Positions 1-64,000 are shown, counted from the stretch's first letter. The stretch: DNA of 64,000 bases from an uncultured virus (IMG/VR IMGVR_UViG_3300022836_000006) (IMGVR_UViG_3300022836_000006), one strand, 5' to 3'. Made by a program: numbers and translations. Notes: generated from the sequence alone by a model not told the origin.

Positions 1-3000
1 CAGGGACGTCCTGACTTGGCAAATCCTGCGGAGGATTCTGAATCTCGTAGCGTAGTCGACGCAGTTGACGAGGCCATGAAACCTGGACGTGAGCGTGAAA
101 CGGTCGAAATGTGGGACAAAGCGGCACAGGAGCGGCTAGACAAGGACCGGGTGGGCTACGTTAGGGAGTTGATCGATCGCGCCAACGATGGCCGTGGGTT
201 CGATGATCCGGTGCAGACTCGTGCGGCTCAGATGATCGTCAACGACTTGGTTCAGGACGCTGTATCGAGTGGCGATGCCCAGAAGATGAAGGACGCGCAG
301 GCGGTGGTGCTCGCGTATCGGGTGACTGGAACCGAACAGGGGCGAGCATTGGCTGCTCGTCGTGATCCCCACAAAACTCCCGAGGAACGGTTTTCGGAGT
401 TCATCGCGTCGTCGCTGTTTCTACCGAAGGCATCGGTTCGCAAAAACCTTTCTGACTCGTGGTCGGCGTCCGCCAAAGCGCGAGAGGTCGATCGTCTGCG
501 CAACAAGATTGCGGATCTGGAGGCTGCGAAGCTCGGGACCGTGGTTGGTGCACCGGGCACTCCTGGGCAGGATAAGACCTTGGCCAATATGCGGCTGAAG
601 TTGGGTGAAGCGATGCAACGTTCCAGCCAGCAGGAGATCGCTAAGAAGGCGGTTGATGGTCGCATGGCTAAGGTTGAGGCGGCGTTCCGTAAGATGGGTA
701 TCACGCTCGATCACATTTTCAATGGTGAGGCGTATTTGAAGCTGCGTGGAAACAAGTTGGTTGATTCGGCGATGAACAAGGCCGGCTACGATGCGAAAAA
801 GAAACGGGTTGTCGGCCTGATTCGACGGGGTTGGTCGGATTCCGATGTCGCCCGTCGCACGGATCAGAATGTATCTGCGGTGGTCAAGGTTCGCTCTGAG
901 ATTATTGCGGCTACTCGTGCAAGATTGGAAACGCTCGGCGACGCTGCTTTGGATCCGGACAAGCTCGATGCTGCGACGCTGGGTTCTGCTCGGGCTGACC
1001 TGAAATCTGGCACGTCTGGGGGGCTATCGGCAGCGGAGCGCCAGAAGAGAATCGATTTGATGCTCTCACGGATGGGGCTGATCGAGAACAAGGAGGCAGT
1101 GATTCGGACCGAAAAGGCGCAGGCAAAGCGTCGGCGCAGAAGCAATGCAAAGCCTAAACGCAAAGCGACACCGTTTCCGGCCAACGCAAAGCCGGGGAGC
1201 GTCGAGTTTCCTGCTGGTGCTGATGGGCAACGTCCCGACGACTTTGGAAACACGCAGCTCGGGCTCGGTGAGGATGCTGATATGGCTCCACCGGTGTTCG
1301 ATATTTCGGATCCGGCACAGGTGGCCCAGGTCGCGAGAACGATTCAGATAGCTGACAGCGGCGCGTTCGATATGCTGTTTGAGTTTTGGATCAATTCGAT
1401 TTTGTCCGGTCCTTTGACGCAGGGTGCAAATGTCGTCGGTAACTCGTTTAACACGGTTTGGGACATGGGGGTGAAGCGCATGGGCGAGGCGATTCTTAAC
1501 GCGGCAGTCAAGGATCCAACGGCGCCACAGCTCGGCGAGTTTAAGTGGATGCTCAAGGGGATGAATAAGTCGTTAGCCGGGGCATGGGCTGCTGCGGTGA
1601 ATACGTGGGCAACCGAGCAGAATATTTACACCAGTTCGATTCTGAATAGTCAGCTTGAGATTAACCCTGTTTTCGATAAGGCAGGCGGGATCAAGGCGGC
1701 GATTCCGGGCAAGACTGGTCGGGTTGTGCGTCTTCCTGGCCGGCTGTTGATGGCGACGGATGCGTTCTTTAAGGCGGCGATCGCTCGGACGCACGTGGCT
1801 GCGGAAGCATACCGCTTGGGTAAGTCATCAAAAAAGAAGGGGGCGGCATTGGTTTCGTTTATTGAGGCGGAGATTGATACGCCGGGGTCGGAGTCTTGGC
1901 GTAAGGCGCTGCTGCTTGCGAACGAGTTGACCTTTCAGGATGATCATGATGGGACGCGGATGGGTAAATGGATGACCTACCTGTCGAAGGCGCGGGAGTT
2001 GGAGGTTCCGGGTGGGATCAAGCCTTTGCGGTTTGTGATGCCGTTTATTCGGACGCCGTGGAACATCTTCCAGCAGGGTATCCGTCAGTCGCCGGTTGGC
2101 GCGGTGGCTTTCGCTGCTAGGATAGGCAGTGCTGGGCTTTACCGCATCAAGGATGGGCGACCAGTGGCGGTCAGCTACCCGACTCCTCTGCTGATCAAGC
2201 ACACGGTAGAGCAGGTGCTTGCTTGGTCGATGGCCGGTTTACTTTATGGGGCTGCAGCCGGAGACGACGACGATGAGGACAAGCAGTTTTTGATCACTGG
2301 GTCTTTGCCGAGCGATCGGATTTCCCAGCGCAATCTCGACCGACGAGTGGGTCTGGCACCTTACGCCATTCGATTTGGTGGCGCACAGGTCAGTTATTCG
2401 CGGATTGAGCCTTTAGCGACGATGCTGGGGCTTGGGGTGGATATGCTCTCTCGTTTGAAGTCAGGTGAGTCTGGGTTTGAGTCGTTTGGGGCGTTCATGT
2501 CTGCTTTGGGTGACTCGGTGGATTCCAAGACTTTTCTGCGGGGTTGGTCGGACCTTGCAGGCGCCATGTCAGGAGAGTCTCGGTTTACGAGCTTTGTTGC
2601 GTCCCAGTTATCGACGCTGATACCAAACCTTTTTCGTCAACCAGTTCGACAGCTTGATGGTGTCTATCGCGAGCGGGAGCATGGACTATTTGCCGAGGTG
2701 GTCCAGAATGTCTATGGGCCGGCCGGGTCTCCAAAAATCGACCCGTATGGCGAGGAGGTTGAACGTCGAGGAGGGTCGTTATGGCGCATGCTGGTGCCGA
2801 TCGAGGTGGGCAAAATCCCCGAGTTGAATCGAGTGGATCAGCTTTTGCTGAATTATCGGCAAACGGCGGACGATCCGCAGTCGTGGGCACCATCCAACCT
2901 GCAGAAATCTATCACGGTGAATGGGGAGCGTCGCACTTTGTCCGGCAAGGTGCTGGAGGAATATAGCCGACGCTCAGGGAAGATGGCGGCTCGTTTGCTG

Positions 3001-3141
3001 CAATCTGTCTCGCTTAATGTCAGCCGTCCTACCTCCCAGGATGTGGAGAAAATTCGTAGGGCATTTACCTTAGCTCGAGCCAATGTGCGCCGGGATATGT
3101 TTTTTGGAACTAGCGCGGATCGCTTTGCTGATCAAAATTGA
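1..3141 (+). CDS. Large virion/DNA-ejection-type protein, 5' truncated by window edge
   Basis: Frame is open from base 1. Helical >1000-aa protein whose C-terminal part (MPFIRTPWNIF, SYSRIEPLATML, KTFLRG) resembles C-termini of large phage internal virion proteins. Directly upstream of the portal. Confidence 0.6.
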   Translation, partial: QGRPDLANPAEDSESRSVVDAVDEAMKPGRERETVEMWDKAAQERLDKDRVGYVRELIDRANDGRGFDDPVQTRAAQMIVNDLVQDAVSSGDAQKMKDAQAVVLAYRVTGTEQGRALAARRDPHKTPEERFSEFIASSLFLPKASVRKNLSDSWSASAKAREVDRLRNKIADLEAAKLGTVVGAPGTPGQDKTLANMRLKLGEAMQRSSQQEIAKKAVDGRMAKVEAAFRKMGITLDHIFNGEAYLKLRGNKLVDSAMNKAGYDAKKKRVVGLIRRGWSDSDVARRTDQNVSAVVKVRSEIIAATRARLETLGDAALDPDKLDAATLGSARADLKSGTSGGLSAAERQKRIDLMLSRMGLIENKEAVIRTEKAQAKRRRRSNAKPKRKATPFPANAKPGSVEFPAGADGQRPDDFGNTQLGLGEDADMAPPVFDISDPAQVAQVARTIQIADSGAFDMLFEFWINSILSGPLTQGANVVGNSFNTVWDMGVKRMGEAILNAAVKDPTAPQLGEFKWMLKGMNKSLAGAWAAAVNTWATEQNIYTSSILNSQLEINPVFDKAGGIKAAIPGKTGRVVRLPGRLLMATDAFFKAAIARTHVAAEAYRLGKSSKKKGAALVSFIEAEIDTPGSESWRKALLLANELTFQDDHDGTRMGKWMTYLSKARELEVPGGIKPLRFVMPFIRTPWNIFQQGIRQSPVGAVAFAARIGSAGLYRIKDGRPVAVSYPTPLLIKHTVEQVLAWSMAGLLYGAAAGDDDDEDKQFLITGSLPSDRISQRNLDRRVGLAPYAIRFGGAQVSYSRIEPLATMLGLGVDMLSRLKSGESGFESFGAFMSALGDSVDSKTFLRGWSDLAGAMSGESRFTSFVASQLSTLIPNLFRQPVRQLDGVYREREHGLFAEVVQNVYGPAGSPKIDPYGEEVERRGGSLWRMLVPIEVGKIPELNRVDQLLLNYRQTADDPQSWAPSNLQKSITVNGERRTLSGKVLEEYSRRSGKMAARLLQSVSLNVSRPTSQDVEKIRRAFTLARANVRRDMFFGTSADRFADQN

Positions 3142-3175
3142 TTGAAAATCAACGTTTAACGGGAGAGAACAAATC

Positions 3176-5383
3176 ATGGCAGAACACGGACAACTCGAAG
3201 TTTTACAGGATCGCATCAGCGGGGTGGAGGCTCCCCCGCATGTTGATAGCACAACTGGACAACTTACGCCACGCGTTGCTTTCCCGTCCGTGCTTCAGCT
3301 CACCTATGATCAGGAGCTTGCGCTGGTGGATCATGCGATGACCCGGCTCGACGATATGGAAAAGGCGATGGGCCGCACGGACGTCATTGAGGACGAGTGG
3401 TGGAAGGGGGAGGGCGTTTCCTCCAATTCAATAGAAGGCGCGGCCGAGAGCTGGATGGGTCGACGTTCACGTTTTGAGGCACTGTTTGAGAACCGGGTGG
3501 ACTGGCGACCGTATTCATTGCCGTCGCCGAATATCTTTGAGGAGTCGAACTTGGTTGTTCCGATCTCGCGCCGGATCTGCCGTCAGATGATTGCTCGAGC
3601 TCAGAACTATTTCTTTGCCACCGATCCTTGGTTTAATGCTACGCCGGAGGGGATGGAGGATGGGGAGTTGGCGGATCAGATCGATCGTTATGCCAAGTGG
3701 AAACTGAACCTGATAGGTTCAAAACGGGGCAAGGAGCGGATCGTCAAGCGTGCCATGCTACTCGGTGAGTGCGTGGTCAAAACCACTTATCAGACGCGTG
3801 ATCAAATCTATGAGACGATGGTCAAGGCTCTAGTGGGCGCGGAGGGTGAGGCTATCCTGGATGCTAACGGGGAGATGATCTTGGAGCGTGCGGACTGGAT
3901 CGACACGGAAACTCCGGGGCTCCGGGTGTTGGGTAGTGATGGGGTGACGCAAGAACCGGAGGCGCCGGTTTACACCGATCAGAAAATAACTAAGCGGCAT
4001 GTGATATTTGAGGGTCCAGAATCGCTCCCAATCTACTACAAGGATTTCTTGGCTCCCCTCGATGCTTTTGATCTCCAGCAGGCGGACTGCATCGCGCATT
4101 TGTATGACCGCAGAGTCATGGATCTGGTCGATACTTACGCAAAGCATGGGGTATTCCGCGGCACGGATACCCAACGTTTCGAGCAGATGAAGCGCACGGT
4201 AGACGCCATGCGGACGATGCTCGATAACAACTCAGAGCCGAAGAGTGGGTCTGCTCGTAATCGGGACGAGGAGGAGGAGGAGGACGATGCTGAATATTCC
4301 GGCGGCGGTCAGCCTATCGTGGAGATGGCCGAGGTGATGCTTTGGTATGATGCCAATGGGGACGGCATACTTGAGAACATCGTTCTGCTGCTTGATCGCA
4401 AGAACCGGCTCCCTGTGCATTATAATTACGTGGCGAATATGTCACCAGATGGCTTGCGGCCGGTGGCGGTGGTGCGAGTTAACGAGGTGGACGACCGTTG
4501 GTATGGGCAGGGCGTCATGGAGATGTTTGACTCTACCCAGACGATCGTGGATCTGCTGGTGAACCGGTGGAACCTGAGCCAATCGAAGGCAGGGCGAGTT
4601 GATTTCTGGGATCCTTCGAAGGTGCTAGAGGGGCGCGACGATCCGAACCTTTGCCTGAATTGGGGGCAGTCCTACACGACAGTGCCGGGAGTTGATGTGA
4701 CCAAAGTGTTACAGTCTGTTTACCTGAACGACGTAAAATTTGAGGCGCTCAAGGATATGCTCGAGTTTTTCATGCAGATGGGGATGAACGAGTCGGGCGT
4801 GACGAATGCGAATGATGGGGCAGCTCTGGGCATGGATACCGCGAAGTTGGCTACCGGGATCCGCAATATTGAGAAGGCCGGCGAGGAGTTGTTTGCGCCG
4901 TTCCTTTCGGACCTGGAGCCGGGTCTTACCGATGTGCTCAAGAGTGAGATTCTAGTGCTTCTGGCTAACCTGAACAAGCCAGAGGTATTCAGCTACTTTG
5001 AGGGGCGAGAGCAGATTACTGCGACGATCGACCCGGCTGACGTGAGCGATGTGAATATGAATGTGACCATGTTCATGACGCGCTACAAGGGAGAGCAGAA
5101 ATTTCAGCAGATGTCGCAGGTTGCTGAAATCATTGAACGGTTTTACATGCTGGATCCGTTGGTCCAGGTGCACGTGGCCGAATACTACCGCGGTATGATC
5201 AAGGCGCTCGACCAGAAGATCAATGTGGACGAGCTGATTGTGCCTTTGCCACCGTTGCCGCCCGAGCAGGCGATCAACAGTGGGAAGGGGCCGCAGCCTA
5301 AGAGGGAGATGGTGACTCGTCCGAAGCCTTCGGCGGCTCCGTCTCAGTTGGACTCATCTTATCAGCCTTCGGCAGGTGGTTAG
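3176..5383 (+). CDS. Portal protein (module A)
   Basis: 735 aa with portal-like segments (LLGECVVKTTY, RWYGQGVMEMFDSTQ, TATGI-like KLATGI). Lies upstream of scaffold and capsid. Confidence 0.75.
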   Translation: MAEHGQLEVLQDRISGVEAPPHVDSTTGQLTPRVAFPSVLQLTYDQELALVDHAMTRLDDMEKAMGRTDVIEDEWWKGEGVSSNSIEGAAESWMGRRSRFEALFENRVDWRPYSLPSPNIFEESNLVVPISRRICRQMIARAQNYFFATDPWFNATPEGMEDGELADQIDRYAKWKLNLIGSKRGKERIVKRAMLLGECVVKTTYQTRDQIYETMVKALVGAEGEAILDANGEMILERADWIDTETPGLRVLGSDGVTQEPEAPVYTDQKITKRHVIFEGPESLPIYYKDFLAPLDAFDLQQADCIAHLYDRRVMDLVDTYAKHGVFRGTDTQRFEQMKRTVDAMRTMLDNNSEPKSGSARNRDEEEEEDDAEYSGGGQPIVEMAEVMLWYDANGDGILENIVLLLDRKNRLPVHYNYVANMSPDGLRPVAVVRVNEVDDRWYGQGVMEMFDSTQTIVDLLVNRWNLSQSKAGRVDFWDPSKVLEGRDDPNLCLNWGQSYTTVPGVDVTKVLQSVYLNDVKFEALKDMLEFFMQMGMNESGVTNANDGAALGMDTAKLATGIRNIEKAGEELFAPFLSDLEPGLTDVLKSEILVLLANLNKPEVFSYFEGREQITATIDPADVSDVNMNVTMFMTRYKGEQKFQQMSQVAEIIERFYMLDPLVQVHVAEYYRGMIKALDQKINVDELIVPLPPLPPEQAINSGKGPQPKREMVTRPKPSAAPSQLDSSYQPSAGG

Positions 5384-5732
5384 CTGATTCCATGCTTAGA
5401 ACGAGGTCTCGGCGGGCTCTTTCGAGCATAGATTTGGCGCGCTTGATGTCCTCGGGTTTGCCGTAGTTGAGGGCATCGATGGCGCCGTCGACGTAGGCCA
5501 TTGTGGAGGCAGTGCTGTCGCACAGCGTAAATGCCGCTTTGCTGATGTGCTCGGCTTCGTCGGTGAGTTGGGCGAGGGACTTGCGCTCGGGTTTGATTTT
5601 GAGCGATGCGATCACTCGGGCGTAGCATTGCTTGAGGGCGGTGTAGGCATGGCCTGGCACCATTGAGTCTCCTGGCGCTGGGTTGATGTTAACCGGCTGC
5701 GTTTTTTGGTCTTTTATGCTGCGATCTTTCAT
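5298..5732 (-). CDS. Hypothetical protein downstream of tRNA cluster
   Basis: ATG at 5732 (MKDRSIKD...) in the 5298..6020 frame, excluding the tRNA part. 3' end overlaps the portal end. Confidence 0.45.
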   Translation of the reverse strand: MKDRSIKDQKTQPVNINPAPGDSMVPGHAYTALKQCYARVIASLKIKPERKSLAQLTDEAEHISKAAFTLCDSTASTMAYVDGAIDALNYGKPEDIKRAKSMLERARRDLVLSMESANHLPKADKMSPTETEPPKASDESPSPS

Positions 5733-5763
5733 AATCTGTGGGGTTCTGGATTGTAGTGGAGAC

Positions 5764-5854
5764 TGGCGGAAGGAGGAGGAGTCGAACCCCACCCGATTAA
5801 ACGAGACCTGGGTTTCAAAGCCAGTCGCGGGCCTACCCCACTGCTTCACCTTCC
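5764..5854 (-). tRNA. tRNA-Ser(TGA), long variable arm, non-canonical fold
   Basis: GGAAGGTG...CTGGC TT-TGA-AA CCCAG...GGTTCGACTCC...CCTTCC-G-CCA; 91 nt; encoded CCA; G discriminator. Confidence 0.8.
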
Positions 5855-5859
5855 TAAAC

Positions 5860-5935
5860 TGGAGCACCCGGCAGGAATCGAACCCGCAACCTACGATATA
5901 CAAAAACGTCGCTCTACCATTTGAGCTACGAGTGC
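5860..5935 (-). tRNA. tRNA-Thr(TGT)
   Basis: GCACTCG TAGCTCAAATGGTAGAGC ... TT-TGT-AT ... GGTTCGATTCC ... CGGGTGC-T-CCA; 76 nt cloverleaf. Confidence 0.85.
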
Positions 5936-5941
5936 ATAAAT

Positions 5942-6016
5942 TGGAAGCAGGGGACGGAATCGAACCGACGACTTCTGGTTTATGAGGCCAGTGATCTACC
6001 ACTGATCTACCCTGCA
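5942..6016 (-). tRNA. tRNA-Met(CAT), initiator-like
   Basis: TGCAGGG TAGATCAGTGGTAGATC ... CT-CAT-AA ... GTCGGTTCGATTCCGTC CCCTGCT-T-CCA; unpaired 1:72 position as in initiator tRNAs. Confidence 0.85.
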
Positions 6017-6063
6017 TCAAATAAGTTGACCTAAAATCGGGGTGTCCTAAGAGTCAACAAATA

Positions 6064-6327
6064 ATGGACGTTGATGAACTGAACGATCGGAAAGACAGAC
6101 GGTTGCGGGAAATCACGAAGCTGACGGAGTGCGATGCGTTTACGGGTTACTTCTCGGATCGGTTGCGCGAGCGGCAGAAGGAACTGGAGACGGCGGTGCT
6201 GGAGGACGATTCCCTGACTCCTGAGCAACGCGAAATTACGCGGCGCATGGCGACCGAATACCGGACCTACACGCGCAAGATTGTAAGCACTGACCGGGCA
6301 TTGGCGTTGCGGCCGGCTATGGGTTAG
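6064..6327 (+). CDS. Hypothetical protein
   Basis: 87-aa ORF filling the gap between the tRNAs and the convergent glycosyltransferase. Confidence 0.55.
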   Translation: MDVDELNDRKDRRLREITKLTECDAFTGYFSDRLRERQKELETAVLEDDSLTPEQREITRRMATEYRTYTRKIVSTDRALALRPAMG

Positions 6328-7349
6328 TTTTCAGGGATCCACGGGATGTGTCGCGTCCTCAAATGCCCGATGCATTCTCCTTCTAGTTCATGGTAGGCAT
6401 GGTTGAGCACGTATTCCTTTTCGCTGCCTCCCTTTTTCTTTTCCCATATGACGTGGTCGCACGGGCAATGGGTGATTACGTTTATCCGGCAGTTGGCGGG
6501 AAACCAGCGATTCCATACGATATACAGGTCTTCTGTTCCGGCGCCGGTGTATCCTTCAAAGTGGGCGAGGTCTAGCGCCTTGGTGTTCATTAGCGTGCAA
6601 CCAAACCCACACCAGTCGGAGGGAACTACGGCACCGAGTCCTATGCCGGGGTAGGCGTTTTCAAGCCAGCCACGTCGACGGTATCGCTCTCCGTTAAGTG
6701 TCCAGACGTTTCCCTTGGTCGGGTAGTTTTTGATTCGCTTTTCGATCCGCATCATTCGTTTGGATTCTTTCTGGGCTTCTTCGTATGTTTTGAATTGATT
6801 CGCGATCCTGCGTCGAGCCTCTGCAATGGCACGTTCCGCATACCAGGGGAGTTTTCGTTCATCGACGTCGAAGTCTTCCGCGATTTGATTTTGCGGAGTG
6901 CCCCGACCACCGAGATACATGCCGTTGTTGTAGGGGCAGGTGCTCACGGAGTAGTGACCATCGTCAAACTCCAGCATTTGCAACGAGCACTTGAGTGCAT
7001 TGGGTGGGGGTAACACGTCGGAGTCTAGGGACCAGCAGTGGGTTGCTCCCAGCTTCCGTGCCGCGGTAAATGCTTCTGTGCGCAGACGAGCTATTAGCAT
7101 TTGCGCGTTGGTCTTGTAGTTTTCGTGGTCGTCGGTAAGTCCAGGGATCGCGATTAAGTGTATGCGCCATCCCTCGGGCATTATGCTTCGATATGCCTCG
7201 GCTACGGCGGCGAGTTCGGGCGACTCGTCGCCGACTAGGACAACGTGCCCCCCCTCAAGATGCCTTACGTTAGCTGCAACTCGGCGTAGCTGGGGGATCA
7301 TAGCATAGGTGTATGCGCTCGTCGCGCAGATCGTGATGGCAAGATTCAT
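6324..7349 (-). CDS. GT-A fold (family 2-like) glycosyltransferase
   Basis: DxD motif (WSLDSDV), GFGCTLM and GTEDL motifs, C-terminal CDH. Confidence 0.75.
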   Translation of the reverse strand: MNLAITICATSAYTYAMIPQLRRVAANVRHLEGGHVVLVGDESPELAAVAEAYRSIMPEGWRIHLIAIPGLTDDHENYKTNAQMLIARLRTEAFTAARKLGATHCWSLDSDVLPPPNALKCSLQMLEFDDGHYSVSTCPYNNGMYLGGRGTPQNQIAEDFDVDERKLPWYAERAIAEARRRIANQFKTYEEAQKESKRMMRIEKRIKNYPTKGNVWTLNGERYRRRGWLENAYPGIGLGAVVPSDWCGFGCTLMNTKALDLAHFEGYTGAGTEDLYIVWNRWFPANCRINVITHCPCDHVIWEKKKGGSEKEYVLNHAYHELEGECIGHLRTRHIPWIPEN

Positions 7350-9407
7350 TTATAGTGCGTTATTTAGAGTCGTATGAAGGTAGATCAGTCGTGAGTCTGG
7401 GTAATAATGACCGTAATCTGATGAAAATGATTGCGGACCAACATCGACAAATCCGCCGCATGCTTCGTGAGCACTCCTAGTGCTACCTGTGAAAGCAATT
7501 AGCTGTGGTTTGAGGAGGGAGGTAGTGCTCTCAGTGGTGGATCCCGTTTGGCTTGTTATACGGTAGAGTCTTTCGGAACGGTTTGCTGCGATTACGTGAT
7601 AATTGGAGTCTGCGTATTGTCCGCCCAGTCCTGCGGTAAAATCCAATTCATCGATGTCTTTGAACGGGCGCGCCAGTTGGTTTGCCGTGGCGGTAATAGC
7701 AATATTACTTAACGCTGGCGGGACCGGGACTGCGGCGGCGGCATCCTCACCAGTAAACGCTGTCAATGGGGGGGTGGTTTGGGTCGTGTTCGTAGTAGCC
7801 GTTGAAATTGAAATATAAAGAGGGTCGGTCGCTTCAATAGCGGAGGGAGGTTTCCAGCCGTTTGCTTGGGAGATCACGGAAGCACCATCGAGTCCTTTAT
7901 GAAAAGTGGTCCGTGGCCATATCGGCATATTTATCCCATTAAGGGTTAATCTGGCGGTGAGGCGTTCACCAAATATATCGGTTCGACTCGCACCAAATGA
8001 AAGAGAACCTGTGGCTGGAAAGCCGTTGGGCGAAACAAGTATCTCGATTACTGCTGTGGTTATTCCGGTCACGCTCCCGACGGACATGACATTTTCAAAA
8101 GTTCCGATCTCTCTGGTGGTGAATGTAGAGATTACGTTGTCTTCGTCGTCGTATTCCTCTTGGATGTATGAGTATGAAGTCGCACGTCCATGACAAGTAA
8201 CCTTGGAGATTCCCATATTGGAATCGTGAGTGAAATAGGTAAAGGTTTGAGGCCAGCCGAACGTGGCAAAGGTTGTTCTTGTGGTAATCTGCGGCCAAAC
8301 TTCTACGGGAATTATATATGGGATCCATAAAGCTCGCGACCACTTTATGGTTTTATCCATGGTGGCTTCAGCAGTTCCTGTCGATCTCTGCGTATCCGTG
8401 GTAGTAATCCAGCTTTCCGCCGTGGTCGTTATAGTATGCGACGGATTTGTCGATAAGCCTTTCGTGATGGTCGCTTCGCGAAGCGATAGCGCTAATGAGA
8501 CCGTCACTGTTTCGTAATTAACCGATATATAGGTCGCTGTCCCTGCGTCTGCGTCTGACGTGTAAGGATAGGTCGCCAGCACATAAGCGTTTGATGACGT
8601 ATTTGGGCTCCCTGTTGCGCGGGTCGCCGTTGTCGTTTCCGTGATCGCTGATAGCAATACCGTGCCGGTTGCAGTCGGGCGAGCGAGGATCAAAACTTCG
8701 CGGAACGGATCGACGATACTGGCATAAACAATCCCTAAATTGGGATTTATGGTTACCGTAGTGACCGCAGTCCCAAGGGTAGACGCGCTGGTGCTCTGTG
8801 TGGAAGTTGAGGATCTGGTAGTGGACGCGGAGGAGGTGACGGGAAATAATACACCTCCTGAATTTGACAAAGTTGTAATAGGAACGGTTGCGCTGCTATT
8901 TAGATACGTCACGACCACGGAAGTCTTAATAGTTGTGGCTTTTGATGATCGCATCGACGCGGTCAATACGTGTGAAGCGGTGGTTATCCCTGAATTTTCA
9001 CCACTGTTCGAGGCTGTGGATGTTACACTCGTTTCCGCCGAGTAAGACGTTGAAGTAGGCCATCCTGTGGTCGTTTCACTTAACGTCGTATATGTCGTCT
9101 CAGACGATTGGCTTAATGAAAAGCTTCTAGACGAGTAGGAAGTTCGACCGTTAGCATCTTGAGTTCGATAACGCTTTATCCGAGTAGACCATGACTGGTA
9201 GGTCATACGTCTAGGGCTATATCCGAATTCGTGAGTATCGGATTTGCTTATCGTTTCGGAAAAAGAAGAATTTACGTTGTAATCTTGATTATTAGTATAT
9301 CCTTCTTTATATACGGTCGCCGAAACGCTCCCTACGCCTGATATATAAGCGCATGTTAACGACATAGCTGGTGAGGCATACGTGGTGCGCTCTTGCCACG
9401 TTATCAT
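7350..9407 (-). CDS. Extremely Thr/Ser-rich protein, probably virion/tail-associated
   Basis: 685 aa with dense T/S tracts; translationally coupled to both neighbours; more AT-rich DNA than flanks. Confidence 0.6.
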   Translation of the reverse strand: MITWQERTTYASPAMSLTCAYISGVGSVSATVYKEGYTNNQDYNVNSSFSETISKSDTHEFGYSPRRMTYQSWSTRIKRYRTQDANGRTSYSSRSFSLSQSSETTYTTLSETTTGWPTSTSYSAETSVTSTASNSGENSGITTASHVLTASMRSSKATTIKTSVVVTYLNSSATVPITTLSNSGGVLFPVTSSASTTRSSTSTQSTSASTLGTAVTTVTINPNLGIVYASIVDPFREVLILARPTATGTVLLSAITETTTATRATGSPNTSSNAYVLATYPYTSDADAGTATYISVNYETVTVSLALSLREATITKGLSTNPSHTITTTAESWITTTDTQRSTGTAEATMDKTIKWSRALWIPYIIPVEVWPQITTRTTFATFGWPQTFTYFTHDSNMGISKVTCHGRATSYSYIQEEYDDEDNVISTFTTREIGTFENVMSVGSVTGITTAVIEILVSPNGFPATGSLSFGASRTDIFGERLTARLTLNGINMPIWPRTTFHKGLDGASVISQANGWKPPSAIEATDPLYISISTATTNTTQTTPPLTAFTGEDAAAAVPVPPALSNIAITATANQLARPFKDIDELDFTAGLGGQYADSNYHVIAANRSERLYRITSQTGSTTESTTSLLKPQLIAFTGSTRSAHEACGGFVDVGPQSFSSDYGHYYPDSRLIYLHTTLNNAL

Positions 9408-9973
9408 GCTAGTTCGGGGCCAATCACCCAGGTATAATAAATATCATAAGGGGAGTGCCCAAATACGGGAGTTGCTTGGTCAGACCGGTATGCCTCTACC
9501 GGAGTCGCGGTGATGGAATGGGCGCCAATAGTTTTATAACCCACTAGATTCACGATAATTCCAAGCAGCACCTTGAAAGACGTTGGTGGGCCTCCCTGTA
9601 AGATGCCAGGCGAACCGGGCGCGCTGGAATCAATGGTGATGTTTGCTGACGTGATCCGCCCACTTGATGTATTGACATTCAAAACAACGTATTCGGTTCC
9701 AGACGCCGCGAGGGCGAGAGTCGCAAATATGTTAGAGGGAATCACTTGATTTATGGTGCCGGGGTGAAATTTCAGTTCTTCGTCGTCGCTGTTTAGATAA
9801 AAATCAAATGGGGAAACCGCGGTATATCCGCCGCCGCCGCCGCCGCCGCCGCCAATCGTGGATTCAGGGGGGCGTTCAGGGTAGATTTCATACGTGCGCG
9901 GGGTTTCCGTCGGGGTGAAGTCGCCAGCCCCGTCCTTACTGAACTCATAGAATGGATCTCTTGGATCGTTCAT
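9404..9973 (-). CDS. Hypothetical virion protein with poly-Gly linker
   Basis: 189 aa; GGC run near 9828-9853; coupled to flanking ORFs. Confidence 0.6.
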   Translation of the reverse strand: MNDPRDPFYEFSKDGAGDFTPTETPRTYEIYPERPPESTIGGGGGGGGGYTAVSPFDFYLNSDDEELKFHPGTINQVIPSNIFATLALAASGTEYVVLNVNTSSGRITSANITIDSSAPGSPGILQGGPPTSFKVLLGIIVNLVGYKTIGAHSITATPVEAYRSDQATPVFGHSPYDIYYTWVIGPELA

Positions 9974-9976
9974 TGA

Positions 9977-12112
9977 TTAGGGCTCAATCAGTTCCCACGT
10001 TACGACCTCGAAGTAGTTCGTGCCATCAAGCGCAGTGAGCACCGGACGCACGTTGCGGCGTAAGATGCCATACTGCGAGCTGGTGTTGGACGTGGCGCCG
10101 GTGCCTTTGGCCTTTGTGGTGATAGTATTAGTGTAGGTGTCAGATTCGGAGTCAGTGGTATCGTATTCCTGCGTTCCCGTCGCCGATCCTCCTCCTGAAA
10201 GATAGCAACCGCGGTATTCGGCCTGCCTCACGCTCGATAATGTGCGGTATATCTCCGTGGAGATCGTGTTCGCAGTGCCGGCACCGATTACTTGAGTGCC
10301 GACATAGAGTTCTTCGGTTCGGATAAACGTCACGGCGCAGGATATTTGCCCGATGTCGTAGGCCGCGGTCCCTGCCGTCGGTGGAGTCGTCACGATTTCA
10401 ACGGTGACAGTCGCCAGCACTTGCTTCGATGACGGCGGAACGACCTCCGCGATTGCTACGGTGCCATCAGGAACGCTCTCGGTCGTAAGGTTCACCGTGC
10501 CGGGAATCGTCACGTTCACTAAATCGGTATAGGTATATTTCTCTTCGACGAGCGTGCCCTGAATCGCTGTCCGGACGTAGACGATATATCCATCGTCCTC
10601 GCGATCTTCGCTCCCAATCAATACCCCGCTCGGGACGTTCGCCGCACCAAACGCCGTATTCGTGACAACCTTTGTGCCAGGAATCTTACCGTCTCTGGTA
10701 ACCGACGAAATCAGGCCAGTGCCTTTAACGAATTCCGCAGTCCATATCCTTATACCGTCTTGATCTTGGTAGTCAGCCCGAATCGCCGTGTAATCGGCAG
10801 GCGTCGAAATCGGGTTGGATGCAGCCAGCGCCACAATATGCCGGATACGTCGGATCAGTATAGCCCCACCTCGGCGCGTTTGGTCGACCTGGGAGACTTG
10901 ACCGTTACCTTCAGCCCATTTCCGGTTGTAGACCGTGTATCCGTCTTCCTCTCTGGTGGATTCGTCGATCAAGACGACGCTGCCGCCGATCGTTTGAGTC
11001 GGAGTTGCTGGCAGGCTCCCTACACGCACTTGGTTGTAGATGACGAGTTTGCCGCCTTCCTTTGTTTGGACGTCGTTGACCAAGTATCCAGTACCGACAA
11101 TTTCAGCGTAGGCTTGGGAGGTGAGGACGTAACCATCTTTTTCGGTGACGTCGCTGTCGATCAGGTTGCCGGACGGGGTGGTGGCATCGTCGGCGCCGAG
11201 ATACTGGATCGACGTGATCTTGACCTGCCCCTTTTGACGGGTGCTTTCTTTGGTGGAGATGCGACCGACTCCTTTGGCAAATTGGTATGAGTATGTTGGC
11301 GATCCATCGGGGTTTTTTACGCTGGTATCGGTGAGCGTAAATCCGGACGGCGTTGATGGGATTTCGTTGAAGAAAACGAGTGATTTTACTATGAGCTTAC
11401 CGTTGCTCGAGTCTTTGGTGCTTTCGGAGAGTTTGCCGGCCGTAATGTATGTTCGGGAGATGGTGCGGACTGCACCGGACGTTTCGCTCTTTATGTCGGA
11501 CAGGGCAACACTGAGCGAGTCGATCGTGCTAATGTCACCGACGTCGCCCGGAACGTAGGTGGCGGCGGATAGTTGCACGAATGTTCGGACAAATGCAGTT
11601 CGTCCGTTTTCCGTGTCGATTCGTTGGTCGCCCCCTATTTGGGTTTCAGAGAGTTCAACCTCGAGGTATTTTACTTTTAGCTGGCGCCGAAACTCGTCAG
11701 ATTGGTTTACGATCTGCGTGGCGGCGTATGATGAGTTGTAAATGCTGCCGATCGATATGGCGGAGATATCCACGTCGGGCTGACCAATGAGTGTGCGAGT
11801 AATGGACTCTCTCGCGTTTACATCTGTGTCGGTAATCGGCTGGATCTCATCGACCATTGCTGTGGTCAACGTCTCGAATACCTGGATCAGGGTGTTGGGT
11901 TTGTTGAGTTCACCGCCGGCTAAATCCTGGGAAACAATGAGGCACTCGGTGTGCTTACTGTCGGCAGTCTTGGGTTCGAGGAGCACGCTGGCCAGTAGCT
12001 CGGCCTTGGTGTCGACGCTGTTGATCACGTCTGAACGGTAGGTGATTCGTAGTCGTCCACCGTAGAGACGATTCACGATTGGTGGTCGGTTTCTGCGATC
12101 AACGAGTGCCAT
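9977..12112 (-). CDS. Putative tail structural protein with internal ~60-aa repeats
   Basis: Beta-rich ORF with recurring E/D-D-G-Y-x-V/L and (A)KGxG units; probable start MALVDRR at 12112. Confidence 0.55.
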   Translation of the reverse strand: MALVDRRNRPPIVNRLYGGRLRITYRSDVINSVDTKAELLASVLLEPKTADSKHTECLIVSQDLAGGELNKPNTLIQVFETLTTAMVDEIQPITDTDVNARESITRTLIGQPDVDISAISIGSIYNSSYAATQIVNQSDEFRRQLKVKYLEVELSETQIGGDQRIDTENGRTAFVRTFVQLSAATYVPGDVGDISTIDSLSVALSDIKSETSGAVRTISRTYITAGKLSESTKDSSNGKLIVKSLVFFNEIPSTPSGFTLTDTSVKNPDGSPTYSYQFAKGVGRISTKESTRQKGQVKITSIQYLGADDATTPSGNLIDSDVTEKDGYVLTSQAYAEIVGTGYLVNDVQTKEGGKLVIYNQVRVGSLPATPTQTIGGSVVLIDESTREEDGYTVYNRKWAEGNGQVSQVDQTRRGGAILIRRIRHIVALAASNPISTPADYTAIRADYQDQDGIRIWTAEFVKGTGLISSVTRDGKIPGTKVVTNTAFGAANVPSGVLIGSEDREDDGYIVYVRTAIQGTLVEEKYTYTDLVNVTIPGTVNLTTESVPDGTVAIAEVVPPSSKQVLATVTVEIVTTPPTAGTAAYDIGQISCAVTFIRTEELYVGTQVIGAGTANTISTEIYRTLSSVRQAEYRGCYLSGGGSATGTQEYDTTDSESDTYTNTITTKAKGTGATSNTSSQYGILRRNVRPVLTALDGTNYFEVVTWELIEP

Positions 12113-12187
12113 GTGAACCGTTGTGATAGAAAGTTGAACAAAAATCAACGTTGACGATCAGGCATCTTTAGGAATATCGAGTAATCT

Positions 12188-13369
12188 ATGGCAATTTCTT
12201 CAGATCAGGCTGTCGCCGATCCCGAAACAGACACCGGCACCGATGATAATACAGCGGCGACGGTGGTAGAGGTTGCACAGGGTAACGACTTTACGTCGCG
12301 ACTCGACTCAGCGGAAAACCCCGCCGATATCCTTAGTTTGCTTGATGACGTGAATTCTGGAGGGATTGAAGTCCCCCAGGGGGAAGCGAAAGAAAAGCCG
12401 ACTGATGTTATTGAAACGGAGGAGACCGAAGAAACCGAGCAATTGGAAGAAACGGAAACCAACGAAGGGGCGGCAAAATTAGAAGAAAAGGAAGATGAGG
12501 AGCCGGAAGGTTCCGATAGTGCCGAGAAACCCGAGGAAGACGAAGACGAAGACGAAACGGAAGGCGACGCCTCCGCACATCGTAAGCAGTTCAGGATCCG
12601 AGGGAGTGATGCAGTAGAGGAGCGAGCGCTTGAGCTGAAGAAGTTCAATCGCGATATGTCTCTTGACGAGTGTCTCGAACGTGCGCGGCGTGAAACTTCA
12701 GGTAGCAATACCGAAGATTCGAAGGCCGAGGATACGGAGGAAGAGCGGGCGGATGGCCTACCCTCGACCACAGATGCCACACGTCTCAAAATCAAGGAGC
12801 TGCGTACTGAAAGGAGCAAAGCGATGACCGAGGAGTTGGATTTGGCTAAGGCGGACCGCCTAGACCAAGAGATCGACGACCTGCGGGATCACTTGATAGT
12901 GATCGATCGAGAAGAGCACGGTAAAGCGTCACAGAAGCAGTCGGCGGAGACTCGTCTTTACGATGAGTCGTTTGATGCGGCTACGGCAAAAGCCCACGGG
13001 CTATACGATTTTCTGAAAGATTCCAAGAGCGCAGCGATGGTTCGTTTGCGTGAGATTGATGCGACTTTGAAGGAGAACGGCGACCCGCTGTTCAATGATC
13101 CTGACAAGCCGCTGAAGCTCGCGCAAATGGTGGCATCCGAGTTGCGCATTGCGCCTAAGTCCAAAAAGACCGCAGCGCCTTCTAAAGAAGCCAAAAAATC
13201 CGCCCCAGTTGAGTCCGCCCAAAAAGTTCAGCTCGCGTCGGGAAGTTCCCGGACGAGCACACAATCTAATGGGAAGGATCAGCTTACTCAGACGCTGGAT
13301 TCGATCAAGAGCCCTGCCGACCTAGCGCGAGCTATGGAGGCATTGGGTATCAGCATCGATACGGGGTAA
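12188..13369 (+). CDS. Capsid scaffolding protein (module A)
   Basis: Very acidic N-half and coiled-coil C-half; immediately upstream of capsid gene. Confidence 0.7.
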   Translation: MAISSDQAVADPETDTGTDDNTAATVVEVAQGNDFTSRLDSAENPADILSLLDDVNSGGIEVPQGEAKEKPTDVIETEETEETEQLEETETNEGAAKLEEKEDEEPEGSDSAEKPEEDEDEDETEGDASAHRKQFRIRGSDAVEERALELKKFNRDMSLDECLERARRETSGSNTEDSKAEDTEEERADGLPSTTDATRLKIKELRTERSKAMTEELDLAKADRLDQEIDDLRDHLIVIDREEHGKASQKQSAETRLYDESFDAATAKAHGLYDFLKDSKSAAMVRLREIDATLKENGDPLFNDPDKPLKLAQMVASELRIAPKSKKTAAPSKEAKKSAPVESAQKVQLASGSSRTSTQSNGKDQLTQTLDSIKSPADLARAMEALGISIDTG

Positions 13370-13430
13370 TCCCCCGGATCCAGTTAATCAGTAGGCTGAC
13401 TCCGGCAGTTAACTTAAGGAGATCAGAAAA

Positions 13431-14912
13431 ATGGCTTATAGTGAAGTATCCCCCAACACTGGGGACGCGCTTTCGACAATGGACGACGGTTCAGTGCGGA
13501 AGCTTTGGCAGAAAACCGTGGATATGTTCGAACAGACCGAGGATTTCTTCGATCAGTTCGAGGGTAAGGGCAAAGGCTCCCCCGTCCTCATCAAAAACGA
13601 CACATCTAAGGGTGCCGGTCAGACGATGACCATCACCAATCGCGCCGGTTATTACGGCGAGGGCAAAAGTGGCGACGCTCTTTTCGAAGAGACTTCCGAC
13701 TACGAGGTTGATCGCATCAACAGCTACACGCTGTCTGTGGATTTTTTACGTAACGCTACGTCGATGACTGAGCGGACCGAGGAAGTCATGGGCATGCGCG
13801 GCGAGCTGCGTGGCGGTCAGGCTGCTGAGTTGGGCAGATGGATGGGCCGTGAAAAGTCCGCCCGGATGATGATGCTCTTTCGCGAGCGTGGTCTCTCGCC
13901 GAATTTGGTATTCGGTGGCGGACGAATGGCGGAGGCTGAGATCGTGTCTGCCGATGGCCTAAACTGGGACGAGATTGTCTCGGCTCAGGCGCAACTCCAA
14001 CCGATGGGCGGTCGTCCGGCTCTCATGGGTTACGATAAGGGTCGCAACGCGATCTATCGTTACATCGTGGCTGGCACGACTCCTGGGTTGTTCAGTCTCG
14101 AGGTCGATGCTGATTTCAAGCAGGTTCTGCGCGAGGCCGGTGTCCGTGGTGACAGCAATGCGGTCTTCGATGGTGGCTTCGTGGACGTTCGTGGTAATCG
14201 CATCAAGCGGTTCAATCCGATCGATCACGATGGCGCTGGCGCTGTGGGTTCCCCTTGGAATCCCAAGGCGTTTCTCGGTGCTGCTATTACGGCTGGCACG
14301 GAGGCTTTTGACGTCAAGGGCGGTGGTAATATCACCTACGGTGCGCTGACTACGCCTCTCTACTTTAAGTATTTTGAGGGTCATGACTTCGAGATGATGG
14401 CTGGTGATTTGCTTACGGCCAGCACGGTTGAGAAGTACTTCCTCATTGTGAATCCTCGCGGTTCTGGCTCAGACCAAGATGGCAAGGTCGGCATGTATGC
14501 ATTCACCGTGGGTAACAACGGCAACAAGATTACGGTGTCGAAGCGTCTCGGTTCTGCCACTGCGGGTATCCGAAATGATACCGTTGGTGAGGTCGATTGG
14601 AACGCCGGCGTGTGGAATGGCAAGCACACCGATGTCCATGAGGTTGGTGCGACGATCATCCCTTGTAATGCAAAGGGTGTTCCTATCGGTGATACGGTAA
14701 TCATGGGGGCTAATGCAGCCCTGCGTGGTTACGGTAAGTATCGGAACAAACGCTCCAGCGAGTCGAAGAACGGCGATTTTGTTCATTATCGCTACATCAG
14801 CTCGGTCTTTGGGCAGGCGTTGCGCAAGGACACGCTGGGTCGGATTCCGGGTTATATCCGGGTTCGCCACGCGTTGAACTACGCGGGTCTCGGTCTTCCG
14901 ACGGTCACTTGA
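13431..14912 (+). CDS. Major capsid protein, N4-gp56/DUF4043-like
   Basis: KGAGQTMTIT...GEGKSGD...YTLSVDFLRNA pattern; strong RBS (AAGGAGA); follows scaffold; followed by a hairpin. Confidence 0.75.
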   Translation: MAYSEVSPNTGDALSTMDDGSVRKLWQKTVDMFEQTEDFFDQFEGKGKGSPVLIKNDTSKGAGQTMTITNRAGYYGEGKSGDALFEETSDYEVDRINSYTLSVDFLRNATSMTERTEEVMGMRGELRGGQAAELGRWMGREKSARMMMLFRERGLSPNLVFGGGRMAEAEIVSADGLNWDEIVSAQAQLQPMGGRPALMGYDKGRNAIYRYIVAGTTPGLFSLEVDADFKQVLREAGVRGDSNAVFDGGFVDVRGNRIKRFNPIDHDGAGAVGSPWNPKAFLGAAITAGTEAFDVKGGGNITYGALTTPLYFKYFEGHDFEMMAGDLLTASTVEKYFLIVNPRGSGSDQDGKVGMYAFTVGNNGNKITVSKRLGSATAGIRNDTVGEVDWNAGVWNGKHTDVHEVGATIIPCNAKGVPIGDTVIMGANAALRGYGKYRNKRSSESKNGDFVHYRYISSVFGQALRKDTLGRIPGYIRVRHALNYAGLGLPTVT

Positions 14913-14933
14913 GGTTAAGCCTCTGCTAGTTTC

Positions 14934-14967
14934 AGCCGGTCTTGGTTAATCCCGAGGCCGGCTTTCT
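14934..14967 (+). terminator. Hairpin after capsid gene (weak U tract)
   Basis: AGCCGGTCTTGG-TTAATC-CCGAGGCCGGCT-TTCT. Confidence 0.5.
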
Positions 14968-14976
14968 GGGTGAACA

Positions 14977-16957: not shown

Positions 16958-16977
16958 TTTACTAAAATCATTACATC

Positions 16978-17490: not shown

Positions 17491-17535
17491 TTAAATACTA
17501 GGAGCGCCTCAGTTTTACCAGTAATATAATAAATC

Positions 17536-17829: not shown

Positions 17830-17847
17830 AAAAAGGAGACCCATAAA

Positions 17848-18204: not shown

Positions 18205-18223
18205 CGGAAAGGGAAACACTATT

Positions 18224-19975: not shown

Positions 19976-19988
19976 CCCCTAACCAACC

Positions 19989-20546: not shown

Positions 20547-20551
20547 CCTCC

Positions 20552-21079: not shown

Positions 21080-21207
21080 GCGATGATAAAGCGCCTTATC
21101 TTCATTTTTCTCACCCTCGCCTGCGCTGGATGTCAGACGGTCACTCCGGTGGAGCAGACCGATGAGCCCGACGTTTGGCGCAATCCTAACGCCCGATATA
21201 TTGAGCC

Positions 21208-21966: not shown

Positions 21967-21967
21967 A

Positions 21968-63110: not shown

Positions 63111-63111
63111 G

Positions 63112-63462
63112 TTAGATTTCCCCTATGAATAATTCGCCTGCTCCAAGGCGGGTGAGTCCCAGCCTTTCCAAGTATTGGTAATATGGTGACGTTGTCTCTG
63201 TGGGCAAGATAATGCGGGCGTGGCCAAGGTCGCGCATGGTCTGTCTGATGTGGCAGAAAACCTTGAACGAAACCATGGGGGTCTGGGCTGAGTGAACCCA
63301 CATAAACACGGCCGGTGCGTAGACCGTCGAGAAGGCAGCGATGATCTGTCCTTGGTCATCTGATACAGCATGGCTAACGCATGGCACGTTGTGACCATCC
63401 ATCACCATCAGGTTGTGGACATAGGCCGACTCGACCGGGGTGGTTATCTGGTATGTTTTCAT
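63112..63462 (-). CDS. Hypothetical protein
   Basis: ATGA-coupled to terminase end. Confidence 0.55.
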   Translation of the reverse strand: MKTYQITTPVESAYVHNLMVMDGHNVPCVSHAVSDDQGQIIAAFSTVYAPAVFMWVHSAQTPMVSFKVFCHIRQTMRDLGHARIILPTETTSPYYQYLERLGLTRLGAGELFIGEI

Positions 63463-64000
63463 CGGATACTTCTGGGGGCGCGGGCGCGGGGTCTGTTGAT
63501 TGCACCATGGTTGGATCTGATGCCCGTCTTGGCCTGTGGGTTGAGCCCGGTCTTGGGCTTGGCTGGGATGGCTGATCGGTCGGTGAGGTAGCCACCTTTG
63601 ATCGCTTGGTGAATGTAGCCAAAGGCTGTGCTGAAGTGGGATGCCCAGTCATGCACCGGCACGTTGCGCACACTCTGCCCGTCGCTCTCCTCCTTGGACC
63701 TGAACGCATCCAATGCATCGATACCGCCCTCGCACCCGTCGAGGTTGAAGGCACAGCGGGCGATGGATGCCAGACCTTGGTTGATGTTGTCCCACTCATT
63801 GATATTGCGGGCCATGCAGACGGTGTGGTCGAGGCCTGCCCTGATCAGCTGGCCTTGGTAGTCCACTGCAGCGTCATGTGGGAGGAAGTGACCACCGTAG
63901 TTGAATGGCAGCGCCTTGATGCGTTTGGCCCATGCACCGGCGTGGTTGCAGTCGTCCCCACCCGTCAGGGACAGCAGCAGGTTGATGCGATCACCCACCA
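63459..64000 (-). CDS. terL: Terminase large subunit, C-terminal nuclease domain (partial)
   Basis: YGGHFLPHDA and PVHDWASHFSTAFGY motifs; upstream of portal. Confidence 0.85.
   Translation of the reverse strand, partial: VGDRINLLLSLTGGDDCNHAGAWAKRIKALPFNYGGHFLPHDAAVDYQGQLIRAGLDHTVCMARNINEWDNINQGLASIARCAFNLDGCEGGIDALDAFRSKEESDGQSVRNVPVHDWASHFSTAFGYIHQAIKGGYLTDRSAIPAKPKTGLNPQAKTGIRSNHGAINRPRARAPRSIR

Follow-up and report, generated by a model that had tools for sequence, protein, structure and literature searches.

We have analysed a 64,000-nt stretch of DNA assigned to an uncultured virus (IMG/VR IMGVR_UViG_3300022836_000006), referred to here as the window, and conclude that it is very probably a metagenome assembly chimera, joined at an inter-genomic repeat, of two unrelated salt-lake phages, rather than a single genome that carries two morphogenesis modules. 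Phage A occupies window positions 1-35645 and phage B positions 35324-64000; the two have exactly positions 35324-35645 in common. The first-pass annotation of this sequence had noted two dissimilar virion assembly modules around one integrase/replication region, and had left 3 explanations standing: tandem or nested prophages, a real dual-morphogenesis or helper/passenger fusion, and an assembly chimera. Below, we show that the contig paths, sequencing depths and gene contents of the 2 halves favour the last of these.

The 322-bp repeat and its depth

The segment common to the 2 phages (35324..35645, + strand) begins with the last 36 nt of an upstream ORF, runs through a spacer of 21 nt and takes in the first 265 nt of ORF 35381-35680. 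We observed that this segment is 100% identical between A-type contig L024 and B-type contig L030, and that its flanks differ between A and B on both sides. The block starts and ends inside genes, and the junction lies within ORF 35381-35680, 10 kb from the integrase. This position is inside the 33-36.4 kb interval that had been proposed for the junction on first reading; the interval had been described as a repeat-rich cassette array, and the short repeats that we found there are few in number (D4, D5 and D6). Cassette genes flanking the repeat are homologous but diverged in the 2 phages, as seen from the 51% amino-acid identity between B ORF 35631-36011 and an ORF on the A exit side, and from repeat D6. 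A second suspected junction, at 22.9-23.4 kb, was not borne out, as that region is continuous in all A-type contigs and holds a conserved RNA element, also found in B, that is described later in this report.

Independent assemblies contain positions 1-35645 at 100% identity and go on with other sequence past 35645. The A-only part (1..35323, + strand), which carries late, lysogeny and early/recombination genes, is 100% identical and collinear in contigs G002, G003 and G004; thus the suggested link of the early genes to module A was upheld by 3 other assemblies that are contiguous over the whole of 1-35645, and also by composition (see below). The path that enters the repeat from A and leaves it into A is followed by contigs G003, L028 and L029, and G004 contains the A entry plus 123 bp of the A exit. 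The path from B to B is followed by contig L030 (43167 bp), which enters the repeat from phage B's own early genes. L030 too crosses the repeat by short-read assembly, and as evidence its path formally ranks equal to that of the window. Among the contigs found, the path from A into B is present in the window only: an exact 40-mer across 35645|35646 gave 0 matches in IMG/VR, and none of the 3 metagenome contigs containing the interior of the repeat takes this path.

For phage B, the window from 35324 to 64000 matches contig G005 (38086 bp, CheckV ~90% complete), which terminates with the first 127 nt of the repeat. Window positions 35324-39554 are 98.5% identical to L030, and from 39809 onward the window is the same as G005 at 100%. 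Closing G005 with window 35451-39808 yields a putative circle of 42444 bp. The protein encoded at 37417-38298 has no relative in IMG/VR, and the segment 35646-39808 is therefore confirmed only through metagenome contig L030. The overlap left at contig ends is 127 bp, which suggests that the assembly k was 127, presumably a metaSPAdes-type maximum k; the 322-bp repeat is longer than this overlap.

We propose that the chimera would have arisen as follows. A and B are members of the same salt-lake communities, and have one 322-bp stretch that is 100% identical within the small-gene cassette arrays of both. In a de Bruijn graph such a stretch is a repeat with two entries and two exits, and the assembler would have entered it from A and left it into B. 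We infer that no molecule stands behind the path of the window contig from A into B.

Sequencing depths showed the step that had been named beforehand as the sign of a chimera. In run X1 (runs X1-X10 are only possible source runs of the window), k-mer depth was 38.1-38.6 for A and 10.5-10.7 for B, a 3.6-fold difference, and a separate Logan unitig corresponding exactly to 35324-35645 had a depth of 49, or ~38.6+10.5; depths of 38, 49 and 10.5 are equally expected if roughly one in four copies of A had B integrated. The assembly graph branches at this unitig, and the loose ends at 35324 and 35645 are letter for letter the sequences of the B entry and the A exit. In run X11 the depths were 11.4 for A and ~4-5 for B, and in runs X21 (A 6-7.5) and X23 (A 9.9) B was essentially absent. 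Uniform depth over both modules, as expected of a single genome, was seen in none of these 4 runs. Logan contigs bridge the repeat in 0/4 runs; k=31 unitigs cannot span 322 bp, so this count says nothing either way.

The composition of the DNA breaks at the same place. Tetranucleotide usage, also singled out earlier as a useful check, switches at ~35 kb, with correlations (r) of 0.865 between the A late and A early regions, 0.903 within B, and 0.43-0.64 between A and B. Only 4 protein-level similarities were found between the 2 phages. Their distributions also differ, as the A portal occurs in 5 IMG/VR samples and the B portal (100% identity) in 4, with both in only 1 of the 8 samples. In 3 IMG/VR samples, B-type contigs were found with no A portal contig.

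Gene content of phages A and B

The first-pass annotation correctly recognized 2 portals and 2 capsids of different families. The A portal, at 3176..5383 (+), matches PF23899 SU10_portal (E 8.8e-22; 77.7 bits against a cut-off of 30; 557 residues) and phrog_1216 (E 2.8e-19), and is preceded at 1..3141 (+) by the 3' end of a giant internal-virion-like protein (phrog_6651 internal virion protein, E 2.5e-15). This protein has 4370 aa in the G002 variant, and its ORF extends 9972 nt further upstream in contig L025; for G002 and G003, identity falls to ~80% just upstream of window position 1. Genes for tRNA-Thr(TGT) and tRNA-Met(CAT) lie at 5860..6016 (-), as detected by ARAGORN and by the Rfam tRNA model (61.4 and 58.3 bits). 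They are followed by a block of 4 ORFs without family match (6324..12148), which runs against the rest of module A (- strand) and varies between A strains; contig L004 has other sequence in place of 6324 to ~9970, and its homologue of the 723-aa ORF shows just ~57% identity. The A major capsid protein (13431..14912, +) was assigned through phrog_334 major head protein (E 2.5e-10); a separate search with this protein gave one weak match, of 27% over 47% of its length. A 621-aa fibre-like protein is encoded at 18110..19975 (+).

The central region of integrase, HTH, RecT, exonuclease, VRR-NUC and DnaC-like genes was found at 23.4-32 kb, as had been described. It contains an HTH regulator (23428-23883, -; HTH_3, E 1.2e-5), a tyrosine integrase (23880-25076, -; phrog_1 integrase, E 1.9e-24; PF00589 at 22.8 bits, below its 27.1 cut-off), RecT (25711-26805, +; PF03837, E 5.2e-39), a DUF3799/exonuclease (28590-29558, +; PF12684, E 5.3e-21), a VRR-NUC protein (30172-30558, +; PF08774, E 1.3e-7) and a DnaC-like protein (31067-31924, +; phrog_3277, E 3.5e-16). 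The earlier idea that one early region serves both modules was mistaken: the 23-35.6 kb region belongs to A only, and B's own early region lies outside the window. A terL-like gene of 630 aa was located upstream of the window in phage A, the genome of which is at least about 62-62.7 kb, a minimum summed from contigs. Window 1-23000 had no megablast match among 50,697 phage records, and the A portal no tblastn match in these records at E<=1e-5. Phage A is a novel and probably temperate phage.

Phage B is a phage of about 42-43 kb, unrelated to A, with a T7-like portal/capsid/tail-tube module. Reading inward from the end of the window, we identified the 3' part of the large terminase (63459..64000, -), which runs off the window end and is complete as a 535-aa ORF at L026 1652-3259(-) (phrog_2, E 7.5e-18); the portal (61221-62897, -; PF12236 Head-tail_con, E 3.4e-112); the capsid (58175-59077, -; PF19821 Phage_capsid_2, E 1.2e-64); tail tubular A (56979-57617, -; phrog_394, E 2.5e-43) and tail tubular B (54371-56986, -; phrog_376, E 9e-188); an internal virion protein (53485-53967, -; phrog_418); and a polyvalent protein of internal-virion type (42097..51780, -; 3227 aa) with ADP-ribosyltransferase domains (PF18760 ART-PolyVal, E 2.7e-58, 4 stretches). 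The distal end of the late operon (36544..42055, -) comprises a tail fibre N-terminal domain protein (41150-42055, -), a phrog_12296 protein (40874-41134, -), a 527-aa fibre-like protein (39135-40718, -) and ORFs that are unknown or lipobox-like. The end of the early operon (35646..36413, +) holds ORF 35631-36011 and an HNH gene (36054-36413; phrog_740, E 1.2e-9), and is contiguous with the B early region in L030. Beyond the window, where a second terminase or replication module had been suggested as worth seeking, we found terminases for both A and B and replication genes for B; the B genes outside the window are terL, terS, a pectate-lyase tailspike, exonucleases, a DnaC-like loader, a DnaA_C HTH protein and a RusA-like protein. 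No integrase was found among the B ORFs scanned, in the window and in the contigs outside it. The B module had no megablast match in the 50,697 phage records, and among cultured phages its portal is closest to those of Pelagibacter phages (28-31% identity).

The 2 fibre genes reported earlier were confirmed and proved to be homologous to each other, with 45% identity over 462 aa by blastp (E 2e-100) and nucleotide patches of 89-93%. Since these genes are related, A and B probably infect the same host. The claims of 2 scaffolds and 2 lysis blocks fared less well. For A, a scaffold candidate at 16978-17490 matches phrog_673 (E 1.1e-7); for B, the ORF at 59340-60353 (-) matches phrog_3742, of unknown function, and is named a positional scaffold only from its place between portal and capsid. 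As to lysis, a crude hydropathy scan pointed to lipobox-like and hydrophobic N-termini in 22159-22512, 37417-38298 and 38229-38735, and no lysin or holin family was matched by 27 unknown ORFs at Pfam E<=0.5.

Separately, we observed a structured-RNA candidate of ~240 nt at 22983..23219 (-) in A, which is also present in B outside the window (L026 6166-6409, 84% identity). Its predicted fold has 75 pairs, of which 8 are compensatory, none is broken and one is beside a gap. Neither Rfam (E<=1) nor the phage records searched by blastn gave a match to it, and pattern scans for it matched only A-, B- and L011-type contigs. A hammerhead-like reading of its CUGAGGA/GAAA motifs was rejected, as the GAAA is a varying GNRA loop (GCAA, GAAA, GAGA) and not a junction strand.

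Alternative accounts of the junction

The most serious competitor to an assembly error is a real cointegrate, in which some members of the population have B inserted, by homologous recombination at the 322-bp repeat, into A or an A prophage, so that the path from A into B is true. Such an arrangement could let the integrase-less B ride on A's lysogeny, and is compatible with the depths of 38, 49 and 10.5, with a B depth that never exceeded that of A in 4/4 runs, and with the failure to detect an integrase in B. Phage A also has genes for RecT and an exonuclease, proteins that favour recombination at short homologies, and the 100% identity of the repeat shows that exchange was recent. Yet the junction from A into B is in no independent contig, B-type contigs occur in IMG/VR samples that lack an A portal contig, L030 closes B on itself (a putative closure), and a cointegrate of >100 kb would presumably be unpackageable by either phage head. 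No observation requires the cointegrate, and we regard it as unlikely. That the window is a phage-in-phage snapshot, with a minority of real molecules produced by RecT-assisted entry of B at the shared cassette and piggybacking on A lysogeny, is distinctly unlikely.

Tandem or nested prophages, with A and B side by side in a host chromosome and each bounded by att sites, would fit the integrase of A and a host probably shared by the 2 phages, as judged from their fibre genes. This arrangement is nevertheless very improbable, as the junction falls in a cassette-array gene and not at an att site or beside the integrase, no host DNA was recognized in the A- or B-type contigs examined, and B is permuted at the junction simply as its circular map would be if opened at the repeat. 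The depths are unequal, and neither portal has a relative, prophage or other, in the genome contigs searched. A single genome that truly encodes two virion modules, by dual morphogenesis or helper/passenger fusion, finds its support in the window contig alone and can scarcely be credited in view of the 3.6-fold depth difference in X1, the occurrence of A without B in X21 and X23, the different composition of the halves, and the terminase and replication genes that each half has for itself in separate contigs. Moreover, independent assemblies did not reproduce the junction (0 in IMG/VR, 0/3 among repeat-holding metagenome contigs). Both of these proposals from the first reading are thus left without support, and the assembly chimera, with its depth step from 38 to 10.5, its repeat at 49 and its parents present as separate contigs, is the one of the three that we retain.

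Relation to known phages and to chimeric contigs

As a catalogue entry, the window would pass for a phage of at least 64 kb with two portals and two capsids, and could be misread as new biology, either dual morphogenesis or a helper-satellite fusion. In practice this calls for care in quality control: such chimeras can be recognized when the join falls in an exact inter-genomic repeat, when the depth of that repeat adds up to those of its two parents, and when sibling assemblies contain the parental paths. The real biology is modest, and concerns 2 poorly related, largely unannotated salt-lake phages that exchange short cassettes and fibre segments and both carry the RNA candidate.

Phage A resembles the SU10-type (Kuravirus) phages in its SU10_portal profile, a kinship at the level of the family profile only. 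In the above searches with window 1-23000 and the portal, A shows no genome-wide similarity to cultured members; it also differs from them in its integrase, which makes it temperate-looking, and in its virion protein of 4370 aa. Phage B shares with T7-like podoviruses (e.g., Pelagibacter HTVC028P and HTVC035P) the Head-tail_con portal, tail tubular A and B, internal virion proteins, a giant last internal protein, a T7-gp17-like fibre N-terminal domain and the T7 gene order. It differs from them in a lambdoid-style early region (exonucleases, DnaC-like, DnaA_C HTH, RusA-like and HNH proteins) and in the place of its terminase, which is upstream of the portal and not last in the late operon. A single-subunit phage RNA polymerase is the defining trait of the Autographiviridae. 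B has the structural genes in T7 order, and neither an RNA polymerase of phage type nor a DNA polymerase was found in the scanned B ORFs, which were selected larger ORFs (from lists starting at 80 aa for the window and 70 aa for L026) of the window and G005 22000-38086, searched at Pfam E<=1e-3 and PHROG E<=1e-4.

Short modules are exchanged as a mosaic between unrelated phages that share a host. The 322-bp block with its gene-internal ends, its diverged cassette neighbours and the 89-93% nucleotide patches in the fibre genes make up an ordinary case of this mosaicism, here misleading an assembler. For simulated Illumina viromes, one report (PMC4247695) describes chimeric contigs as common and co-existing similar genomes as harmful to assembly. 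Like known chimeric contigs formed at inter-genomic repeats in short-read viromes, the window has an exact 322-bp stretch in co-occurring genomes, with two entries and two exits, a summed repeat depth and a mixed path. It differs from them in that its parents are otherwise unrelated and are not strains of one virus, and the join therefore gives a striking pseudo-genome with two head modules.

Contig paths through the 322-bp repeat

Family scans bore out the first-pass annotation's claim that the window holds two dissimilar virion modules: phage A (window 1-35645) carries an SU10-type portal and phage B (window 35324-64000) a PF12236 portal, and their capsids are separate. At 100% identity, the A portal was found on 5 IMG/VR contigs and the B portal on 4 others; both occurred in only one of 8 samples, and there on two different contigs (35,768 and 38,086 bp). 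Three A-type contigs (G002, G003 and G004) are collinear with window 1-35645 and 100% identical to it. G002 ends at window position 35450, G003 continues past 35645 for 9.3 kb that are not present in the window, and G004 continues for 123 bp that match the continuation of G003. The B-type contig G005 corresponds through its nucleotides 1-24192 to window 39809-64000 at 100% and extends 13.8 kb beyond the window end, its last 127 bp being window 35324-35450.

The segment common to the two phages, 35324-35645 (322 bp), is 100% identical between the A-type contig L024 and the B-type contig L030, and its flanks in A and B are unrelated over 100 nt before and 130 nt after. It begins 36 nt before the end of an upstream ORF, crosses a short spacer and takes in the initial 265 nt of ORF 35381-35680. 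In one scan of JGI metagenome contigs, a 40-mer from within the repeat matched 3 contigs. L028 and L029 enter and leave the repeat through A sequence, while L030 (part of a 43,167-bp contig) enters and leaves through B sequence, matches the far end of G005 at 100% and follows window 35646-39554 past the repeat at 98.5% identity. Among the contigs compared, only the window combines A sequence entering with B sequence leaving the repeat, and a 40-mer spanning 35645|35646 had no IMG/VR match.

After the common 88-codon ORF start, three continuations were observed at 35645: the B sequence, a first A type (G003, G004, L028 and metagenome runs X1 and X11) and a second A type with approximately 524 bp extra directly after 35645 (L029, at its 10186-10709, and runs X21 and X23). 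Site 35645/35646 is a cassette-swapping hotspot.

Read depth and interpretation of the junction

Window segment 33.5-37.5 kb was present whole or partly in 24 salt-lake metagenome runs, and Logan unitig k-mer depth was followed over 26001-46000 in 4 of these. The first-pass annotation had proposed that a chimera would be revealed by a coverage step or a lack of spanning sequence at the junction. Such a step was found (~38 to ~10.5): in X1, the possible source run, depth was 38.1-38.6 up to the repeat and 10.5-10.7 past it, and a unitig of exactly 322 bp (35324-35645) stood at depth 49, or about 38.6+10.5. The loose ends of X1 at 35324 and 35645 were identical letter by letter to the sequences by which B enters and A leaves the repeat. 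Depths in X11 were 11.4 for A and ~4-5 for B; B was essentially absent from X21 (A, 6-7.5) and from X23 (A, 9.9), in which one 28-kb contig passes the repeat into a variant A continuation. Spanning sequence was likewise not found; k=31 unitigs are too short for 322 bp, and therefore the absent bridge proves nothing by itself.

Correlation of tetranucleotide deviations was 0.865 between the late and early parts of A, 0.903 between the halves of B, and 0.43-0.64 for A versus B. A sliding tetranucleotide profile changes over at 35-40 kb, where the sliding windows were included in their own reference.

We consider it very probable that the window is an assembly chimera formed at an inter-genomic repeat; short-read virome assemblies are documented to contain chimeric contigs (PMC4247695). 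The main rival, to which we assign a small probability, is that an A::B cointegrate really exists in a minority of molecules. The depth figures are equally compatible with a cointegrate, no integrase was detected in B, the gene set of A includes RecT and an exonuclease, and the depth of B was never above that of A in the four runs; however, the junction was not found independently, three samples have B-type contigs without an A portal contig, and no observation requires such a molecule. Tandem, att-bounded prophages appear very improbable and a true dual-morphogenesis genome barely conceivable, both being contradicted by the junction position and the depth step.

Gene content of the two phages

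A and B are each complete without the other. Module A occupies 1-23 kb on the + strand, with the 3' end of a giant internal-virion-like gene (1-3141; phrog_6651, E 2.5e-15), the portal (3176-5383; PF23899, E 8.8e-22), the capsid protein (13431-14912; phrog_334, E 2.5e-10), a weakly matched scaffold-like protein (16978-17490) and a 621-aa fibre-like protein (18110-19975). On the - strand lie tRNA-Thr and tRNA-Met (5860-6016) and, at 6324-12148, four unknown ORFs of 341, 685, 189 and 723 aa. In L004, a related stretch from another sample (13150-15624), the first three of these ORFs are swapped for ~1 kb of different sequence, and the counterpart of the 723-aa ORF is only ~57% identical. The block is hypervariable and possibly contains receptor-binding or defence genes.

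In G002 this giant protein of the A virion reaches 4370 aa (window 1-3141 plus 451-10422 of the upstream stretch L025). Just upstream of window position 1, the identity of G002 and G003 falls to ~80%, and position 1 is where G004 begins, so the window probably starts at a contig end that lies in a variable part of this gene. The A sequence preceding the window holds the remainder of the giant gene, a 397-aa ORF and a 630-aa ORF resembling a terminase.

An HTH regulator and a tyrosine integrase are encoded at 23428-25076(-), and region 23.4-36.4 kb also carries RecT, a DUF3799 exonuclease, VRR-NUC, a DnaC-like loader, a small-ORF array and an HNH endonuclease (36054-36413). Adjoining RecT, a 428-aa unknown ORF (26807-28093, +) contains degenerate 33-nt (11-codon) tandem repeats at 27197-27923. 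MazG and a resolvase/invertase were likewise found in A, whose pieces sum to at least about 62.7 kb.

Module B (36.5-64 kb, - strand) has T7 gene order in family scans: portal (61221-62897; PF12236, E 3.4e-112), a scaffold assigned by its position between portal and capsid, capsid (58175-59077; PF19821, E 1.2e-64), tail tubular proteins A and B, internal virion proteins and fibre genes. One internal protein, of 3227 aa (42097-51780), matched ART-PolyVal (ADP-ribosyltransferase of polyvalent proteins) in four stretches. Across both modules, lysin and holin families gave no match even at Pfam E<=0.5, only lipobox-like N-termini being seen. Outside the window, B has the rest of the large terminase, the small terminase, a pectate-lyase-type tailspike, tRNA-Met and a rightward early operon (two exonuclease-like proteins, a DnaC-like loader, a DnaA_C HTH protein and a RusA-like resolvase), which enters the repeat and continues as window 35646-36413. 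Joined to window 35451-39808, G005 closes at 42,444 bp, consistent with the CheckV estimate of 90% for the 38,086-bp G005 and with the 43,167-bp contig of L030.

Features common to A and B, and relatives

All-against-all blastp of stop-to-stop frames detected only four A-B protein similarities: the fibre proteins (A 18110-19975(+), B 39135-40718(-); 45% aa identity over 462 aa), an ART segment of the giant proteins (~31%), one cassette protein (51%) and the DnaC-like loaders (22%). Kinship of the fibres, with nucleotide patches at 89-93% identity, points to a host common to A and B; portal searches of genome contigs gave no host name for either. Logan contigs break up at the fibre genes, and inside this gene G005 and L030 part from the window. 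The fibre gene is a second site at which A and B exchange sequence and strains vary, and it may be locally mis-assembled.

The tRNA-Met(CAT) genes of A (5942-6016, -) and B (6419-6494(-) of L026, a B stretch outside the window) look related in a three-sequence alignment, whose columns average 74% identity across all its members. Directly after the B gene, L026 6166-6409(-) is 84% identical to window 22983-23219(-), which in A lies downstream of the HTH/integrase operon. This ~240-nt segment is a conserved structured-RNA candidate common to otherwise unrelated phages. For its - strand RNAalifold predicted 75 pairs, of which 8 show compensatory changes, 0 are broken and 1 lies beside a gap (slid controls, 0-1), in a comparison of two sequences from which the structure itself was derived. 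The 5' hairpin is kept, with a compensatory change, in L011, a distant B relative (about 1040-1140, +), and its GNRA loop is GCAA in A, GAAA in B and GAGA in L011. No Rfam match was obtained at E<=1, and ORF 23084-23431, called across the candidate, is probably spurious.

Against cultured phages, A gave no nucleotide and no portal match, and its capsid one weak match. B is not classed as an autographivirus, because no RNA or DNA polymerase was detected among its scanned ORFs. Its structural core is like that of T7, and portals of Pelagibacter podophages are 28-31% identical to its own.
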